NCBI GenBank assembly: GCA_020850225.1
Contig: JADZFD010000078.1
Span: 6,846-70,845, forward strand
Direction of reading: 5' to 3'
DNA length: 64,000 nt
From: Saprospiraceae bacterium
GTDB taxonomy: Bacteria > Bacteroidota > Bacteroidia > Chitinophagales > Saprospiraceae
Part shown: in pieces, positions 4,382-16,300 of the stretch
Layout of the letters: every line of letters begins with the position of its first letter
Numbering within the stretch: the stretch's first letter is position 1
Notes under the pieces: model-generated
Database searches by the model: none
Seen by the model: the letters and a program-made list of their open reading frames with translations, nothing else
What the model was told of the DNA's origin: nothing
Made by a program: the position numbers and the translations under genes

Positions 4382-5620
4382 TTAATTTTTTATTGCTTTG
4401 GCTATACTTCTCTGGCTTAAATTTAAATTTGATTTATTATCTATATATAATTCATTCATAAAACTATAAATTATATTTGAAACATCTTCAAAAATGGATT
4501 TATCATCTATCTGTATATTTTTTTTCATCAGATAGGCAAATACTCTCGCCATGCCACAATTTGCAACAAAATCCGGAATAAGAGCTATCTGCTGATCTAC
4601 CCAATTAGCCGTCTCACCAAAGAAAATTTTATCATCTGTAAAGGGCACATTGGCTCCGCAAGTGATCACTTTCAATCCATTTTGCATCATTCTTCTAACC
4701 TGATCCGATGTCACAAGTCTGGAAGCTGCGGCGGGAATAAATATATCACATGGTGTATCCCAAATAAGGTTGTTTGCTGATGCAAAATCCAATTTATCAC
4801 CTTCCAGTGTGTTACCAGTTTTGTTTACAAACAGATTGCTGACTACTTCAGTACTCATACCTTCAGGCTCTATCAATCCTCCATCCTTGTCAATGATACC
4901 CACTATTTTAGCTCCTGCTCCTGCCAGGTAATATCCGGCAGCAGCAGCGACATTGCCCCACCCCTGAATAATAATCTTTTTGTTTCTTACCTCTTCGTTA
5001 TGGAAGATAGCATAATAATGTTTAACAGCTGCAGCGACACCATATCCTGTAATCATATCGGCTACAGCATATTCTTTCTGACAATCCGGAACATAATTTG
5101 TATCCGTAACAATCTTTGAAACACCTGTCCTCAATTGATTGATGATCCGTATTTTTTCACCTTCATCCGGTTTGATATGTCCATTTACAACACCTTCCTG
5201 TGGATGCCAAAGGCCTAATTGTTCTGTAACTGGAATAACATCCTTTAATTCATCTATATTAAGATCACCGCCGGTACCGTAACATGTCTTGAGCAATGGC
5301 ATAACAGCTTTAAACCATCGTGCCAAAACCTCATCCTTTCTTGGATCATGCGGATCAAAATCTATCCCTGATTTTGCGCCGCCGATGGGTGGCCCACTGA
5401 TTCCAAATTTAATTTCCATAACTTTTGAGAGCGCAACTACTTCGTCTTTAGTCAAACCCTTTCTCATTCTCGTTCCTCCACCTGCAGCTCCATTCTTTAA
5501 TGAATTAATGACAATCCAACCTCTTGCTTCTGTCTCAGAATCATGCCATTCAAAAACTATTTCCGGCTCCTTAGAAGTATATGATTTTAGCAGATTATAA
5601 AAATCAGTTTGTTGCTCCAT
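4382..5620 (-). CDS. Glu/Leu/Phe/Val dehydrogenase family protein (amino-acid dehydrogenase)
   Basis: 412 aa. It has a GGGTRM...GPPIGGAKSGIDFDP catalytic-Lys region and a Rossmann GWGNVAAAAGYYL motif. Confidence 0.8.
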   Translation of the reverse strand: MEQQTDFYNLLKSYTSKEPEIVFEWHDSETEARGWIVINSLKNGAAGGGTRMRKGLTKDEVVALSKVMEIKFGISGPPIGGAKSGIDFDPHDPRKDEVLARWFKAVMPLLKTCYGTGGDLNIDELKDVIPVTEQLGLWHPQEGVVNGHIKPDEGEKIRIINQLRTGVSKIVTDTNYVPDCQKEYAVADMITGYGVAAAVKHYYAIFHNEEVRNKKIIIQGWGNVAAAAGYYLAGAGAKIVGIIDKDGGLIEPEGMSTEVVSNLFVNKTGNTLEGDKLDFASANNLIWDTPCDIFIPAAASRLVTSDQVRRMMQNGLKVITCGANVPFTDDKIFFGETANWVDQQIALIPDFVANCGMARVFAYLMKKNIQIDDKSIFEDVSNIIYSFMNELYIDNKSNLNLSQRSIAKAIKN

Positions 5621-5661
5621 ATCGAAAAAATAAATTTAATTTACTATTTATTAATAATTTA

Positions 5662-5669
5662 TATCTTTG
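5662..5669 (+). promoter_or_regulatory. Bacteroidota-type -7 box TATCTTTG
   Basis: Matches TAnnTTTG, with 22 nt to the ATG at 5692. This supports the shorter start for the downstream ORF. Confidence 0.45.
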
Positions 5670-5691
5670 TGAAAATTTTAATATAGAAGGT

Positions 5692-6696
5692 ATGTTCGAT
5701 AAATCCTTACATCTTATACCACATAACAATGAAGCTATTTCCTTCTTTAACTATACGCATAACCATAGCAATCCAGAATTTACCTTCAATCAAAAGGGAA
5801 TAGCATTTATAACTGATTCCAGTGATTTTTCTACTAATCTGCGCAAATGTATTGAAAAATTCAAAAATCATTTTAAAAATATTTCCATTTATGATGCAGG
5901 ATTAACAGATGACTGTAGTTTCAAAGACATTTCAACACTTATTCAACATCTAAACCAAAAACAGATAATACCTTTCATTATAGGTAATCATGTGGATTAT
6001 ACAGGTGACATTGCAGCTCACCTTGACAGCAACCTGTATCACATCTCCAATTCAATCAATAATATAACCGGAAACGCACAGTATGTAAAAAACAATTATA
6101 TTGCATATCAACGACATCTCTGTGATTTGGACGACGTATTAGAAATTGAAAGCGTACACGTTAATTCTATAAGTTTAGGTAAAATCAGATCTTATCCATA
6201 TCTGCCTGAACCTGTTTTACGCGATTGTCAGATGCTGCATATTCATCTAAGTGCCATCCGTTCTTCAGAATGTCCGGGACTAACAGATACATTACCTACT
6301 GGTTTAAATATCGAAGAATTGTGTCAACTAATGAAATATGCTGGTACTGCCAATAATTTAAAAAGTATATTTATTCATTCAGGGGATATACCTGCTGATA
6401 ATCCTGAAGCAGCCAATATTATAGCTGAGTCATTATGGTATTTTGCTGAAGGTATGAACTTACAACAGAATTTTGACCACCCATACAAAAATCCGGATTA
6501 TAGTCAGTTTATAGTTTCAAATGCATCTGATGCTGATGACTTGATTTTTATTAAAAACAATAGAACACATCGATGGTGGGTCAATAAATCCAACAATGAC
6601 CAACATGAATACCTTGCCTGTGCTTTCGAAGAATACGAATATGCTTTAAGCAACGGGGAAGCTAGTGATAGAATTTCTAAATTTTTAAGCGAATAA
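5692..6696 (+). CDS. hypothetical protein, possible degenerate arginase/formiminoglutamase-fold protein
   Basis: The ORF track gives 5581..6696. I prefer the ATG at 5692 (MFDKSLHL...) because the longer form overlaps the divergent dehydrogenase gene and the -7 box. IGNHVDYT and HLSAIRSSECPGLTDTLPTGLNIEEL resemble ureohydrolase motifs with the metal-binding Asp residues replaced. Confidence 0.5.
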   Translation: MFDKSLHLIPHNNEAISFFNYTHNHSNPEFTFNQKGIAFITDSSDFSTNLRKCIEKFKNHFKNISIYDAGLTDDCSFKDISTLIQHLNQKQIIPFIIGNHVDYTGDIAAHLDSNLYHISNSINNITGNAQYVKNNYIAYQRHLCDLDDVLEIESVHVNSISLGKIRSYPYLPEPVLRDCQMLHIHLSAIRSSECPGLTDTLPTGLNIEELCQLMKYAGTANNLKSIFIHSGDIPADNPEAANIIAESLWYFAEGMNLQQNFDHPYKNPDYSQFIVSNASDADDLIFIKNNRTHRWWVNKSNNDQHEYLACAFEEYEYALSNGEASDRISKFLSE

Positions 6697-6776
6697 TTTC
6701 CAATTATTATTTTTTAGGTTAAAAAACTACCATATTTCCACCCAAAATGCAACATTCCAGTTTTATCAGCAATATT

Positions 6777-6956
6777 TCACGAATACTTAAATAAATCGAA
6801 AGCTAAGGGCTGAAAGTTGATATGGGCACTATCCTCATCAAACTGCAATACCGGATCATTGCCCCAGTACCCCATAACCATCTGTGCATCGTATCGATAC
6901 TGTCCCTGCACTACTGTCACTAACAATAGGGCATGCAGGATATATACCCATCTCAT
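6777..6956 (-). pseudogene. truncated 59-codon N-terminal fragment, paralogous to the 6958..8466 gene
   Basis: Own translation: MRWVYILHALLLVTVVQGQYRYDAQMVMGYWGNDPVLQFDEDSAHINFQPLAFDLFKYS*. DNA at 6841-6890 matches 8339-8388 at 48/50 positions. Confidence 0.55.
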
Positions 6957-6957
6957 A

Positions 6958-8466
6958 TCAACGCAGTATGATTAGTTTTTTAAATATGGTCCTTTCCTTT
7001 CCGCTATGGTCTATCCGTACCCAATACACCCCTTCCGGCAGTCGTGATACGTCGGCTTCCCATACCGTATCCGGCCATTGTTCGGGGATAATGACTGTCC
7101 TTCCTGTCATATCTATTATGCTTACGCTACGTATCACGTGACTACTCCTGATCGTTACCCTGTTATCTGCCGGATTGGGATACAGGGTAGTGGCGACATC
7201 ATCCGAATATGGTGCGACGTGCTGATTTGTCGAGGTAACGACTTTGATATCGGGATCGCAGTACGGATAGCCTGTACCTAAGCGGTAGTTGGGAAAGTGC
7301 GGTACATAGCATATCGGTGTCTTCAGCGTAAAGAAATGCTGCCGAACATCACATGCCTTCCCGGGCTTGTCCGGCTCCATGATCACGTGCATGAAGGGTA
7401 CACAAAATCCGGGTGCCATATAGATGCGGCAATCAGGGCCTATCTGCATCGCACCGAAGTAGGCTGGCTGCCCCCATCTTGCTACCGTACCATCCCATAC
7501 CGCTATCGTATCCGCTACCAGCTCCTCTGCCTCAGCGTCTATCTGCATGAGGTAAGGGCCATTGCCGATATAGATATATCTACCGCTTGGCGAAAAACTA
7601 CCTCCAAGCGCAAATATATTTGCCTGTGATACCGGCAGATGCCGCTCATGTGAGAAAAGTCCTGTCTCCCGGTCAAAGTCCATCACCGACAAGCCACTAC
7701 GGTAATTGGAATAGCGGAAATACTTACTGCCATCAGGGCTGAATCCAGCATGATAATATTGCCCCCACTTCGGCCCAATGTCTTGGCTACCGGTAGGGAT
7801 TAATGCACCATCCCTGAGTAGTGTCGTGTATATCGTATTACTCCAATACTCATCGGGATTAATGATCCACCAATCCCGATTATTGGCGTGCCGTACTGCT
7901 GTAAAAGCACCAGGCTGCATTGTCGTATCGGGATGATACATTTGATTCTTCAGGATAACACGCCCTTTACCACTATTTGCCTTCATATCCACTATCGAAT
8001 ACCGGGGTATTCCATATAAGTTTACAGTATCCTTTATATAATAGTAATCCGAGGTGATATGTAACAACATAAAGAGACTGTCTTTATTATCTAAAGGAAG
8101 AATTAAACTTGACTGGTCACTACCTCCATATGCTGAAGTGCTATCACGGCAAAAGTTGTCATAATCCTTGCCCGGATTAAATCCCGTTCCATTCTCCATA
8201 ATCTCATGATCCGCATTCGACATGCTGCATCCGTTATAATAAAATAAGAGATTCCCCTCTTTATCCGATATATTGCTTGAAGACCCTACCATATCGAAAG
8301 CTAAAGATTGATATTCAATCTGCACACTGTCAGGCCTAAACTGTAATACCGGATCATTGCCCCAGTACCCCATGACCATCTGTGCATCATGTCTATACTG
8401 CGCCAGTATTTCTACTCCCGATATACATATCAGCATGACCGGAAGGATATAGTATATATGTCTCAT
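6958..8466 (-). CDS. secreted protein with T9SS type A C-terminal sorting domain (propeller-like body, FSPDGSKY / FSPSGRYIY motifs)
   Basis: 502 aa with a signal peptide. The C-terminus (LYPNPADNRVTIRSS...GVYWVRIDHSGKERTIFKKLIILR) is typical of a type A CTD. Confidence 0.8.
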   Translation of the reverse strand: MRHIYYILPVMLICISGVEILAQYRHDAQMVMGYWGNDPVLQFRPDSVQIEYQSLAFDMVGSSSNISDKEGNLLFYYNGCSMSNADHEIMENGTGFNPGKDYDNFCRDSTSAYGGSDQSSLILPLDNKDSLFMLLHITSDYYYIKDTVNLYGIPRYSIVDMKANSGKGRVILKNQMYHPDTTMQPGAFTAVRHANNRDWWIINPDEYWSNTIYTTLLRDGALIPTGSQDIGPKWGQYYHAGFSPDGSKYFRYSNYRSGLSVMDFDRETGLFSHERHLPVSQANIFALGGSFSPSGRYIYIGNGPYLMQIDAEAEELVADTIAVWDGTVARWGQPAYFGAMQIGPDCRIYMAPGFCVPFMHVIMEPDKPGKACDVRQHFFTLKTPICYVPHFPNYRLGTGYPYCDPDIKVVTSTNQHVAPYSDDVATTLYPNPADNRVTIRSSHVIRSVSIIDMTGRTVIIPEQWPDTVWEADVSRLPEGVYWVRIDHSGKERTIFKKLIILR

Positions 8467-8467
8467 C

Positions 8468-8872
8468 TTAACGCAATTTGATTAATTTCTTTATCGCTGT
8501 ATGGTACTGCTCACCATAGACCACCCGCACCATATAGATGCCCGGTAGTAGCTTACTGATATCCATTTCTACCTCTGCTACGCCACTCGCTTGCTGTTCT
8601 TTGACTATACTCCCCGATACATCCATCAACTGTACTTCCGTGATCTCTGTCCCTGTGATCCGTATCCTGTCCGTTGCCGGATTGGGCATGACGGATACCT
8701 CCCTATCACTATGTATAGCCCGTGTGCGATAAGCTGTCGGCTGGCACAGTGCGTGGTCGTCATAGCTTTGCTCACAGCTGATACCCAACTCTATAAATCT
8801 CCACCCATTATTCTGTCCATAAATCAAATGGATTTGTACAAAAAACACAAGTATTAATATGAATCGTTTCAT
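8468..8872 (-). CDS. small T9SS type A CTD protein (signal peptide, ~40 aa, then CTD)
   Basis: 134 aa. VMPNPATDRIRITG...PGIYMVRVVYGEQYHTAIKKLIKLR is a CTD. Its stop lies 1 nt from the start codon of the next gene. Confidence 0.7.
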   Translation of the reverse strand: MKRFILILVFFVQIHLIYGQNNGWRFIELGISCEQSYDDHALCQPTAYRTRAIHSDREVSVMPNPATDRIRITGTEITEVQLMDVSGSIVKEQQASGVAEVEMDISKLLPGIYMVRVVYGEQYHTAIKKLIKLR

Positions 8873-9203
8873 AATACAATCAGATTTTAAAATATAGATT
8901 ATATTATTACAAAGTTAATACAATTATTCTAAGCTTGTATAAATTTAAAATACATATTGTTTATATGCATATTATTTACCAACTCTATATTACATAAAAA
9001 AGGAATACATTATTCTTACCTATTTCCGATTTGGCGAAGTACTTTTAGATAAGACCATTCATGAAAATATGAAATCATCATTCAATTAATATTCATACGT
9101 ATTTATTGGATTACCTACCCGGATATGTAATTTGGATCAGAATTTTAGAAAAATCAATACAACTTTATTGTATCATCTCCACCATCATCAATGAAAACAA
9201 GAT

Positions 9204-10475
9204 TCACTCTAATATCTTTTCTACTGAGATACCACGAGAACCTTTCAACAAGATTTTTTTGTTCTGATAGCCCTGAGCAACGAAGTATGCCTTTGCCTCT
9301 GATATATTTGTAAAGAAATGTCCTTTATGCCCATCGGATAGGCTTGATAGCATAGGGCCGATATATATAATGTCAATAAAATTGTACTGTTCAATCATCC
9401 GAATCAATGCTAAATGCTCTTCCTGGCTATATGTCCCTAATTCGAACATATCTCCAATGACAATGACTTGGTCGCCGCCCAACCTGACAAAACTTTCTAT
9501 ACTCGCTTTCATGGAAGAAGGATTGGCGTTATAGGCATCCAAAATAATCTTATTCCCATTATATTCTAAAATCTGTGAACGATTATTTTCCGGTTTGTAG
9601 TTCATAATAGCCGTATGGATGTCAGTCTCAGCAACACCGAAATACTGACCGCAAGCTATTGCAAATGCGATGTTGGACAGGTTATATGTACCGTACAAAT
9701 GCGTTTGATATACTTTATCTTTGTATTGATACGCTAATATATCCGTATTTTGAGCATTAATATGTAGAACAGATGCATGAAAAGTTAGTAGATGCGCATC
9801 TGTTGGGAGCAGCGATTTTAAAATTTCGTCATCCATATTAACAAAAATATGGCCGTCGGCAGCAGCCACATATCTGTACATTTCAGATTTACCCCTTTTT
9901 ATGCCTTCCACACCACCAAATCCTTCAAGATGTGCTTTCCCTATATTGGTTATAACACCATAATCCGGTCGGGCAATATTACAAAGCATATCAATTTCTC
10001 CCTGATGATTGGCACCCATTTCGATTATAGCAAATTCGATATCATCGCTGATTGACAAGATAGTAAGTGGTACACCAATGTGGTTGTTCAGATTGCCTAT
10101 GGTTGCATAAACTTTATATTTTGCTGACAGGACATCTCTAGTCAGTTCTTTAGTTGTAGTTTTCCCATTAGATCCTGTAATGGCAAGAAATGGAATTTTT
10201 AATTGACTCCTGTGATATCCGGCAAGATGCTGAAGGGTTTCCAATGCATCTTCCACCCATATAACTCTTGCATTGTCGTTATTTTTAAAAGCGGTGTCAT
10301 CAACAACTACAAAATCAGCACCTGACTCAATAGCGTCATATGCAAATGTATTGCCATCAAATTTGTCACCTTTTAATGCAAAAAATATACATCCTGGATT
10401 GACTTTACGACTGTCGGTAACAATACCTGTGGATTGTTTCCAATGATTATATAAAATATCTATTTCCATAAACAA
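9204..10475 (-). CDS. murF: UDP-N-acetylmuramoyl-tripeptide--D-alanyl-D-alanine ligase
   Basis: 423 aa. It has the Mur ligase P-loop ITGSNGKTTTKE and DAYNANPSSM, and sits next to gldJ as in Flavobacterium johnsoniae. Confidence 0.9.
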   Translation of the reverse strand: MFMEIDILYNHWKQSTGIVTDSRKVNPGCIFFALKGDKFDGNTFAYDAIESGADFVVVDDTAFKNNDNARVIWVEDALETLQHLAGYHRSQLKIPFLAITGSNGKTTTKELTRDVLSAKYKVYATIGNLNNHIGVPLTILSISDDIEFAIIEMGANHQGEIDMLCNIARPDYGVITNIGKAHLEGFGGVEGIKRGKSEMYRYVAAADGHIFVNMDDEILKSLLPTDAHLLTFHASVLHINAQNTDILAYQYKDKVYQTHLYGTYNLSNIAFAIACGQYFGVAETDIHTAIMNYKPENNRSQILEYNGNKIILDAYNANPSSMKASIESFVRLGGDQVIVIGDMFELGTYSQEEHLALIRMIEQYNFIDIIYIGPMLSSLSDGHKGHFFTNISEAKAYFVAQGYQNKKILLKGSRGISVEKILE

Positions 10476-13382: not shown

Positions 13383-16300
13383 ATGAGTTTTGAAAGATAT
13401 TTTTTAAAGTGTTTATTTTCTTGTATATTTATAAGCTACAGTGTTGTGATCTTCTCACAAGGTAGCGATGATATTCAACTTCCATTGCGATGGAGCCATA
13501 CCCATCTGAATGAAGGGCCAATGAAACTGGAAGCGTATGGTATCTACAATGAAAAGCTACCGGAAGTTGATGCAGTTTACTTTACCCAACCTTATTTTAA
13601 CCGGGAAATACAGCAAGCTGAACTAGTAGTTGTTTCTTCCCAAATCATTTCAGTTCCGGACAGTATTGCTTTAAGGCTAAGTGATTCATTTACTTATGAT
13701 ATCAGTGTCATAGAAGTAAGAAACCAATATGAACTTCAGCTATTTCTGAATCCGATCAGAAAAGTCAATAACAATCAGGCAGAAGTTATCACCAAATTTT
13801 CCATAAATTTCAATTACGATATACCATTTCCAATACAATCCAGAAATCCGGAGGCAACCTTTCAATCTGTATTAGCTTCAGGCGACGTATATAAAATAAA
13901 GGTTAGTCAAACAGGCCTGTATAAAATCACCAAAACATTTTTAGAAAATGCATTGGGTATCAATATCAATACCGTTAATCCTAAAAAGATAAAGATATTT
14001 GGCAACCGGGGCGGAAGAATTCCTGAAGCCAACAATATTCCCCGTCAGGATGACCTGAAACAACTCAGTATATATGTAGCAGGAGAGGCTGATGGAAAAT
14101 TTGATGCAGGAGACTATATCCTGTTTTATGCAGAAGGAGCTGATCTTTGGTCATATAACTACGATATGCAATCCTATAATTTTGATAAAAATATATACGA
14201 TGACTTTAACTATTATTTCATCAAAATTGATAGTGAAGACGGGCTTAGAATAGAAAAACCAGCTGAAATCACAGGTAGCCCGGATTTTATTACGTCAGTA
14301 TACGAAAAACTTCAGAGATGGGAAGAAGATAAAACCAATCTTTTAGGCAGTTTCAATGCTACCGAAGGCACCGGAAAGGATTGGTATGGAGATATATTTA
14401 ACAGTGTGAAGGAAAAAAAATACACTTCTTCTTTTAATTTCTCTGATCTGGAAATGGATTCTACTATACATCTGACGATGGCTTTTGCTGCCAGAGGAAA
14501 AAACTCAAGTAGTGTAACCATTAAAACAGGCGATAAATCTTTTTCAAAAAACATTTCTTCAGTCAATACCATTAATTTTGAAAGTTTATATGCCCGAAGA
14601 GTCGCATTCAATGAAAAATTCAAATTAAACACGGTTACGCCTGAAATTACATTATCATTTCCACAGGCTTCCATAGACAATACCGGATGGTTAGACTATA
14701 TACAATATGTCAGTAAGCATCGATTAAATACGTCCTCTACCCTGCAATTTGCATTCAGGAACAGTGAATCACAGCCTTATAATATTGCTGCATTTGAAAT
14801 ATCAGACATTAAAGACGGGACAATCTGGGAAATTACTGATCCATTCAATCCCAAACTCAGTACATTAACAGGCAATCTGCTTAAGTTTTTACCTGAAAAA
14901 CAAAATAAGGAATTCTTATTTCATCATTTGGACAAAGGAGCATACGAGCCAACAGCGGTTGGTAAAGTACCTGCTCAGAATCTTCATGCCATGCTTGACG
15001 AAGATATGATTATAGTTTATCACCCTGATTTTAAAACAGAAGCTCAACGATTGGCCGGCTTTCGCAACCAACAATCAGGACTCAGGGTATTGCTGGCAAG
15101 TACTGAAGAGATCTATAATGAATTCGGTGGTGGAAAAGCCGATCCGGGAGCCATAAGAGATATGGCAAGATTGCTTTTGTTTCGTAATCCCGCATTTAAG
15201 TTCCTGCTTTTGATGGGTGACGGCAGTTATGATTATAAAGGAACAGATAAAAATCTATCCTATGAGAACTATATACCCGTCTATGAAACAGATGAATCCC
15301 TGGATCCTATCAATGGTTTCCCTTCAGATGATTTTTATGGATTACTTGGAGAAAATGAAGGTGCAGACCTTCGTGGTGGTCTGGATATATATATCGGCAG
15401 ATTACCCGTACGTAATGTAAGTGAAGCCAAAACCATAGTAGATAAAATCATACATTACGAAACCAATCCGGCTACCCTGGGAGACTGGCGTACCAGGACA
15501 GGCTTTGTATGTGATGATGAAGATGGCAATACGCATATTCGCGATACAGATGATATCGCCCGTAAGGATGAAAGCCGCCATCCATTGTACACACAGCAGA
15601 AGATATATATTGACGCTTACAAACAAGTGTCCACATCCGGTGAAAAGCGCTATCCGGATGCCAACAAGGCAATCAACAACAACATATTCAAAGGTTTGCT
15701 ATCCATGACCTATCTCGGACACGGAGGACCGTTGGGCTGGGCACAGGAGCGCATTTTAACTATTCCTGATATAGAAAGCTGGACGAATGCCGACAACCTG
15801 ACGCTTTTTATTACGGCAACATGTTCATTCGGAGCGTATGACAATCCTTCAAAACTCAGCCCGGCAGAATATGCCATACTGAACCCTAAGGGTGGAGCCA
15901 TAGCACTCATGACGACAACAAGGGCTGTATATACCAATACCAACAAACTTCTTACGGATGCCACACATGAGAATCTGCTTGATAAAGTGCAAGGTGAGCG
16001 CCCCACTTTAGGTTATATAATGACTGAAGGGAAAAACAAATATCAGTCCGATAATTCATTCAGGGTTAACTCACGGAAATTCGTATTGTTAGGAGATCCT
16101 TCCATGCCGCTGGCATTGCCAAAATACAATATAGTGACCGAGAAAATCAATGGCTCGGATGCGGCACTGGCAACTGATACTATGGCTGCTCTCCAAAAAG
16201 TACAGCTAAGCGGATATATAGCAGGTAGTGACAATGCAATCCTGTCAGACTTCAATGGTACTCTGTATATAACCGTTTATGATAAAAAATCATCACTGCG

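Follow-up and report, generated by a model that had tools for sequence, protein, structure and literature searches.

Introduction

Among the surface proteins that Porphyromonas gingivalis exports through its type IX secretion system (T9SS), gingipains and HagA have undergone domain rearrangement and allelic exchange (PMC5266723). Here we compare with these a locus in a window of 64,000 nucleotides (nt) from a Saprospiraceae bacterium (GenBank assembly GCA_020850225.1, contig JADZFD010000078.1, positions 6,846 to 70,845), where positions 6697-9203 of the window carry, on the minus strand, a 134-amino-acid (aa) open reading frame (ORF), an intact gene for a 502-aa protein with a predicted beta-propeller, and the 5' end of a second propeller gene. 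The interpretation that we favor, with a probability of roughly 0.8, is that this segment is an inserted and since decayed copy of an accessory T9SS module of the genus, in which a protease gene is joined to propeller genes. As in P. gingivalis, a protease gene and companion T9SS genes seem to have been diversified by homologous recombination or gene conversion, with near-identical segments beside diverged ones. In contrast to the gingipains and HagA, the units here are whole genes placed head-to-tail with 1-nt boundaries in environmental Saprospiraceae, and what the window appears to hold is a decayed copy and not an active variation system.

Two other described groups bear on the locus. Like type A T9SS cargo, the 134-aa and 502-aa products both carry a C-terminal sorting domain with scores above the curated cut-offs and both have signal-like starts, although the passenger of the 502-aa protein has no Pfam family and that of the 134-aa ORF is almost nil (~40 residues). 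Lactonase-type/YVTN propellers (PF10282) provided the best structural matches to the model of the 502-aa protein, yet share only 10-13% sequence identity with it. A literature search returned no description of the 502-aa family or of tandem T9SS cargo arrays. We consider the locus ordinary in kind and neat in detail, and the module uncharacterised but widespread. In the following, G000 denotes the genome of the window, G001, G004, G010, G015, G041 and G051 are genomes of the same genus, and P0002, P0003 and P0013 are database matches forming the clade closest to the G000 propeller copy.

An insert between murF and a conserved gene

The 2507-nt segment at 6697-9203 lies between the stop codons of two flanking genes, namely a plus-strand conserved gene of 371 aa (5581-6696), which is convergent with the insert and has orthologues in 38 of 40 other genomes of the genus, and the minus-strand gene murF for a Mur ligase (9204-10475; Pfam Mur_ligase, Mur_ligase_M and Mur_ligase_C). 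In G001 and G010, where both loci were read, the stop codons of these two genes touch or overlap, and 23 of the 38 other genus genomes that hold both genes carry them on a single contig, the matches being <300 nt apart. Because murF and the 371-aa gene adjoin in these genomes, the segment is an insertion relative to the congeners.

Within the insert, an AT-rich spacer (8873-9203, minus strand, 20-28% G+C) stands upstream of the 134-aa ORF (8468-8872), one nucleotide (8467) separates the TAA of this ORF from the ATG of the 502-aa gene (6958-8466), and one further nucleotide (6957) separates the TGA of the 502-aa gene from the ATG of a 5' stump, which is listed as a 59-aa ORF at 6777-6956 and is extended by homology to ~71-75 codons (6732-6956), all on the minus strand. 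These three ORFs and both 1-nt gaps are exactly where an earlier reading of the sequence (hereafter, the original prediction) had placed them, and the T9SS C-terminal domains that it had proposed were recovered by profile searches: the 134-aa and 502-aa products scored 45.1 and 47.3 bits, respectively, with Por_Secre_tail (Pfam PF18962, cut-off 27) and 42.3 and 34.3 bits, respectively, with TIGR04183 (NCBIfam, cut-off 23). Both ORFs also have hydrophobic, signal-like N-termini, read directly as MKRFILILVFFVQIHLIYGQ and MRHIYYILPVMLICISGVEILAQ.

The 134-aa ORF as a collapsed protease gene

The original prediction had taken the three ORFs as copies of one gene unit. Homology between the 134-aa ORF and the 502-aa protein was found to be confined to the sorting domain (37% identity), and the whole of the 134-aa ORF was covered by the two ends of the proteases that the G004 and G015 modules encode. 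Its residues 1-37 correspond to residues 1-38 of these proteases (50-53% identity) and its residues 35-134 to residues ~1139-1241 (39-42% identity), the two alignments overlapping at Q-S-Y ('DQHY' near the N-terminus of the protease, 'QDYDD' near its C-terminus), such that what the ORF retains is the putative signal peptide and 17 further residues, fused to the final ~100 residues, including the type A sorting domain recognized by Pfam. The tail is nearest to a partial protease gene on contig C70 of G001 (47% identity, with an identical 'YDDHALCQ' stretch). Because the protease ends account for the whole ORF, it appears to be the remnant of an in-frame deletion that removed ~1100 codons from a ~1240-aa zincin/beta-helix protease gene. 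In the G004 and G015 proteases, Reprolysin and NosD match at residues ~32-773, wholly inside the deleted part, and with only protease residues 1-38 and ~1139-1241 remaining the ORF has neither a zincin catalytic domain nor an HExxH motif. With its putative signal peptide, ~40 residues and sorting domain, its product may lend itself to work on export as a naturally occurring minimal T9SS substrate.

A comparable state was observed on contig C1 of G010, where a 143-aa, 5'-truncated protease remnant without signal peptide (L005:2969-3400) lies directly upstream of, and overlaps the start of, an intact 508-aa propeller gene (L005:1450-2976). This is an independent decayed module, parallel to that of G000; from the two remnants together it follows that the propeller gene has outlived the protease gene more than once.

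The intact 502-aa propeller gene

The 502-aa protein consists of a putative signal peptide, a seven-bladed beta-propeller at residues ~24-410 and a type A sorting domain at residues 428-500, as judged from Pfam, an AlphaFold2 model and structure matches. The model (predicted local distance difference test score, pLDDT, 89.1) comprises a putative signal helix at residues 3-20, the seven-bladed propeller and a sorting-domain sandwich. Its best structure matches, over model residues ~22-390, were lactonase-type/YVTN propellers (PDB 4qrj, 3fgb, 3scy, 1l0q and 1jof; Z 23.4-22, 298-311 residues aligned, root-mean-square deviation 3.4-5.3), with 4qrj_A scoring Z 23.4 over 300 residues, while generic WD40 propellers score near Z 20, about 2-3 Z lower. 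The fold search on the model would thus indicate a generic propeller, from which no shared function can be deduced. At the sequence level, only the sorting domain was matched by Pfam, the propeller part giving no match at E<=0.1 and none in NCBIfam, and the protein falls outside the PF10282 sequence family.

The gene has been well preserved. In a family alignment of 44 sequences it departs from none of the 39 invariant columns, and in comparison with the G001 copy dN/dS was 0.04-0.17 in 4 of 5 gene regions with computable dS, with synonymous sites near or at saturation throughout; purifying selection therefore appears to have acted for most of its history. In the tree it groups with the G001 copy and P0002/P0003 (support 97/96). 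The family, a large and unnamed one of T9SS propeller cargo that the intact gene represents, comprises 846 database matches, mostly from Saprospiraceae, and its members adjoin secreted metalloproteases at six of the loci examined. A 110-aa antisense ORF at 7297-7629 (plus strand) has 54-58% identity in relatives, and was rejected as a gene because it is the shadow of the most conserved and GC-richest part of the propeller gene.

The stump of a second propeller gene and the 1-nt junctions

Similarity of the stump to the 502-aa gene was detected by blastn (E=5e-20) and tblastn (1e-16 to 1e-20) and amounts to 73% identity over a 154-nt ungapped register. It includes the patch described in the original prediction, in which 48 of 50 nt are identical between 6841-6890 and 8339-8388, at the start of the mature protein (DAQMVMGYWGNDPVLQF); shuffling of positions produced a 50-nt window as good as this at a frequency of 5e-5. 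Identity between the stump and the full copy falls to about 60-70% outside the patch, which is also kept between species (43/50 versus G001). The two sorting domains being 37% identical, only this patch qualifies as a homogenised tract in G000, where there has been little recent homogenisation. The stump and the full copy also have a 12-nt deletion in common (GYWGN-DPVLQF), which was tried as proof of a conversion specific to G000 and rejected because P0002 and P0013 share the short form GYWGNDPVLQF.

The fragment had been described as diverging and then stopping. When its frame was read through the TGA at 6777-6779, it was found to stay similar to the full gene for 71-75 codons (53% aa identity), with homology running ~12-16 codons past the TGA and ending at ~6732-6745. 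This TGA stands where a Cys codon (TGY) is kept in 7/7 copies compared from three relatives, while the intact G000 gene has Ser at that position. The third unit is thus interpreted as a 5' stump with a Cys-to-TGA nonsense mutation, cut off near the edge of the insert, and since its end lies ~35-50 nt from that edge, the end is better read as the end-point of a deletion or insertion than as a product of crossing-over. The 80 nt at 6697-6776 gave no blastn or tblastx match in the fetched loci or the genome. For annotation, two of the three ORFs are best treated as remnants and not as members of a three-gene family.

The two junctions had been called identical in the heading of the original prediction and near-identical in its text; they are similar without being identical (25/33 positions). 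At every array boundary in G004 and G015 we found either a stop codon, one base and ATG or a TAATG overlap. Because all array boundaries in these relatives have this form, the 1-nt spacing is apparently a family-wide habit of gene boundaries and not the footprint of one event. The 1-nt gap or 1-base overlap probably couples the translation of successive array genes.

The module in related genomes

In G004 and G015 the module consists of a divergent XRE-type regulator gene, the protease gene (1237-1241 aa, with reprolysin-like zincin, NosD-like beta-helix and sorting-domain matches) and tandem genes of ~503 aa, two in G004 and at least four in G015, which are 62-68% identical to the 502-aa protein. 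Propeller genes thus form head-to-tail arrays of variable copy number, with one copy plus the stump in G000, one in G001, two in G004 and at least four in G015, in line with the copy-number variation that the original prediction had proposed to look for. The genes flanking the module in G004 map to contig C3 of G000 and those in G015 to contig C90, where they stand ~500 nt and ~100 nt apart, respectively; the module therefore has a different locus in each of three congeners.

Tracts of homogenised sequence stand beside diverged sequence in both arrays. Three complete copies of G015 are 100% identical over the last ~600 nt, and over the first ~100 nt two are 100% identical and the third 95%, while the middles of the copies are 63-75% identical (proportion of synonymous differences, pS, 0.66-0.79; dN/dS 0.07-0.12). 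The G004 copies are 99-100% identical over the last ~300 nt. Since the ends are identical, the middles diverged and the propeller copies cluster by genome in the tree, the array members appear to be paralogues of long standing, with gene conversion or unequal exchange keeping the parts that span the junctions identical. Diversifying selection in the variable middles was considered and rejected (dN/dS 0.07-0.12, saturated dS).

From these comparisons we infer the following course of events in G000. The module, with a protease gene and tandem ~503-aa propeller genes (together with the XRE regulator in two relatives), would have landed downstream of murF; an in-frame deletion at a short Q-x-Y(D) motif common to both end-points would have removed ~1100 codons and reduced the protease gene to the 134-aa ORF; the propeller copies after the first would have been lost, leaving a ~75-codon 5' stump near the insert edge; and the stump would have gained its Cys-to-stop mutation. 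Such a history would make the locus an example of surface-protein turnover in abundant wastewater Saprospiraceae, with landing at different sites, array expansion and homogenisation, and decay.

G000 also contains a distant paralogous pair on contig C27 (C27:13906-19413; L015:4906-10414), in which a 1320-aa protease with thermolysin-like (M4), NosD and sorting-domain matches is followed 7 nt later by a gene for a 512-aa propeller that is 30% identical to the 502-aa protein and has a weak Pfam Lactonase match (E=0.001).

Several further features of the modules in relatives were observed. The module on contig C3 of G015 is bracketed by a direct repeat of ~120 nt (L014:2050-2167 and 15730-15850) made up of a duplicate of the upstream host gene's 3' end and terminator, and on contig C4 of G004 a repeat of ~340 nt, 96% identical (L013:11892-12230 and 15857-16195), brackets a low-GC gene pair after the array. 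Target duplications of such length suggest single-crossover integration of circular DNA. On contig C70 of G001 (L003:6-550, minus strand), the ORF after the single propeller copy opens with a propeller-family signal peptide (MRYICYILSVLLISIS) and continues, in AT-rich sequence, as protease-family residues ~232-369, an arrangement resembling a chimeric start of a gene at the array's boundary.

Base composition

The region contains 45.6% G+C, compared with 37.0% for the 3.25-Mb genome, a value reached by 0.07% of 2.1-kb windows. G+C peaks at 50-54% at 7000-7800 and 8500-8800, and the excess lies mainly at third codon positions. Among 1456 long ORFs the 502-aa gene ranks fifth in G+C at third codon positions (GC3; 0.478 versus 0.347 ± 0.047) and first in its share of NCG codons (0.353; mean 0.129, sd 0.047). 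Its bias is toward G-ending codons, with two-fold Y-ending codons used as in the host, unlike the C-ending bias expected of highly expressed genes. Windowed G+C and codon statistics thus upheld that part of the original prediction which called the composition atypical; foreignness in the sense of recent import from another lineage was not upheld, as discussed below.

The G3-rich, NCG-rich usage is common to the module in G000, G001, G004 and G015, with host-like flanking genes in the last three, and the single-copy paralogue on C27 is moderately NCG-rich as well. Along the gene, GC3 tracks within-array third-position identity (rho 0.78, p=3e-4 in G015; rho 0.66, p=0.006 in G004), the correlations being based on 16 windows of which neighbours are not independent, so that the p-values are optimistic; against between-species protein identity the correlation was not significant (rho 0.25-0.30). 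We conclude that GC-rich and NCG-rich usage goes with the module wherever it is found and is strongest in the parts that conversion keeps identical among array copies. GC-biased gene conversion in the exchanged, junction-spanning unit is a candidate for having made and upheld this bias, one that we put forward tentatively, as a testable lead and not as a result, and would consider more likely wrong than right. If it were true, the module family would offer a small natural system in which to test biased gene conversion in bacteria, one that moves between loci as a protease-propeller cassette and has no recombinase of its own.

Persistence of the structure and evidence of expression

Every sampled word of 6400-9500 was found in 13 DNA sequencing runs from activated sludge, wastewater, bioreactors and one soil sample (2015-2024), some of which may be the source sample, and one DNA contig, also possibly from the source sample, matches 6000-10000 without difference. 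The 502-aa gene and the 134-aa ORF are covered in part by contigs from RNA libraries of three studies, and such contigs bridge 6470-6788, 6480-6884, 6759-7959 and 8353-10000, spanning both edges of the insert and running from the 371-aa gene into the stump, from the stump into the 502-aa gene and from 8353 into murF; gaps in them over parts of the region carry no information on expression. Variant contigs of ~96% identity also bridge 6480-6884 and 6759-7959, and since these variants share the structure, the decayed state predates the divergence of the strains. One RNA-library contig (run X15) has 49 differences from the window over 6759-7959, at least 23 of them clustered in 7699-7822, which suggests that a co-occurring strain carries a recombinant patch there.

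A single candidate for a Bacteroidota-type -7 box (TAnnTTTG), TAACTTTG, is located at 8917-8910, 38 nt upstream of the ATG of the 134-aa ORF, and a scan of 6500-9400 found no terminator-like site, including none between murF and the 134-aa ORF; a sigma-70 promoter scan is uninformative for Bacteroidota. A promoter of their own in the AT-rich spacer and read-through from murF are both possible for the 134-aa and 502-aa genes, and by one or the other the intact propeller is probably still made and exported.

Alternative explanations

The explanation contained in the original prediction is an origin in place of three tandem copies of a single sorting-domain unit, the third cut by unequal crossing-over, and the 25/33 identity of the junctions, the 48/50-nt patch, and the junction-spanning homogenisation and variable copy number in relatives would all suit it. 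The first unit is the remnant of a different gene that is homologous to the 502-aa gene only in the sorting domain, an in-register exchange gives whole units and not a 75-codon stump at the edge of an insertion, and the stump and full copy are ~60-70% identical outside the patch, which makes this origin rather improbable; recombination across the junction unit did find support in the family, but not as the source of the stump. Recent acquisition of a GC-rich segment from a GC-richer lineage outside that of the host, not yet drifted toward host composition, would account for GC3 and NCG usage that are extreme for the genome, for the insertion itself and for the occurrence of the module at three loci in three congeners. 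The check suggested originally, of whether the best hits lie outside the host lineage, placed them instead in genomes of the host genus and in Chitinophagales/Saprospiraceae metagenome bins, at 64-70% identity and with no near-identical donor found. Because the nearest relatives belong to the same genus and the bias is common to all of them in spite of synonymous sites that are saturated against every one, such a transfer seems unlikely; moreover, GC3 follows the conversion tracts and not protein conservation, and the C27 paralogue has some of the same bias.

The module could also have been ancestral at this locus and precisely deleted elsewhere, as might be suspected from the fact that the closest relatives by flank identity (G004, G015 and G041) likewise have no simple adjacency of murF and the 371-aa gene. 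We regard this as very improbable, given the adjacency in 23 genomes across the genus (in the two that were read, the stop codons touch), the unrelated genes that G041 and G004 carry at the site, and the location of the G004 and G015 modules at other loci. A chimeric or collapsed contig is conceivable in a metagenome bin of 113 contigs, in a family whose arrays break assemblies (G001 C70, and contig ends in G015 and G004), but both insert edges lie inside a 74.6-kb contig, and the words found in the 13 DNA runs and the independent contigs bridging both edges reduce an artefact to a negligible prospect.

Against the interpretation of 6697-9203 as an inserted and decayed module we set the following points. 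No integrase or transposase ORF was found in the insert, and a search of its flanks for direct and inverted repeats gave chance-level matches only, with no att site or target duplication, so that of the marks of a horizontally acquired islet the insert has the atypical composition and the presence/absence difference from close relatives and none of the mobility features. The XRE-type regulator gene of G004 and G015 is absent from the G000 module. By blastn and tblastx the 331-nt spacer resembled neither the fetched loci nor any other part of the genome, so that no left edge could be drawn for the module. The end-points of the deletion in the 134-aa ORF are placed at the protein level only, and this ORF could have gained a function of its own. 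In the RNA-library contigs, strand, level and even the RNA origin of the signal are not readable.

The insertion site and the flanking 371-aa gene

Other genomes carry other genes at the same site. In G041 the interval between murF and the 371-aa gene measures 2.07 kb and holds genes unrelated to the module, in G051 (contig C4, L031) an unrelated insert of ~15 kb separates the two genes, and in G004 (contig C1, L022:1-7459) at least 7.4 kb of other genes follow the 371-aa gene up to the start of the contig; in G015 both murF and the 371-aa gene stand at contig ends. The interval just downstream of murF is a recurrent insertion site. The G041 insert (contig C35, L030:1525-3278) was observed to consist of three tandem paralogues of 185-188 aa with signal-peptide-like starts and a common C-terminal '...GALLRFGVIL', and the G004 genes beyond the 371-aa gene include proteins with a HEIGHARY zincin-like motif and without any Pfam family match. 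With G004 and G051 in view, the site resembles a hotspot for the insertion of secreted-protein genes.

The 371-aa protein itself was assigned to no family by a Pfam search, and its ORF as listed overlaps the upstream gene. Matches to orthologues begin at ORF residues ~14-69, and at residues 30-38 in the closest relatives; because they begin downstream of the listed start, the true start of the gene is probably the ATG near 5692.

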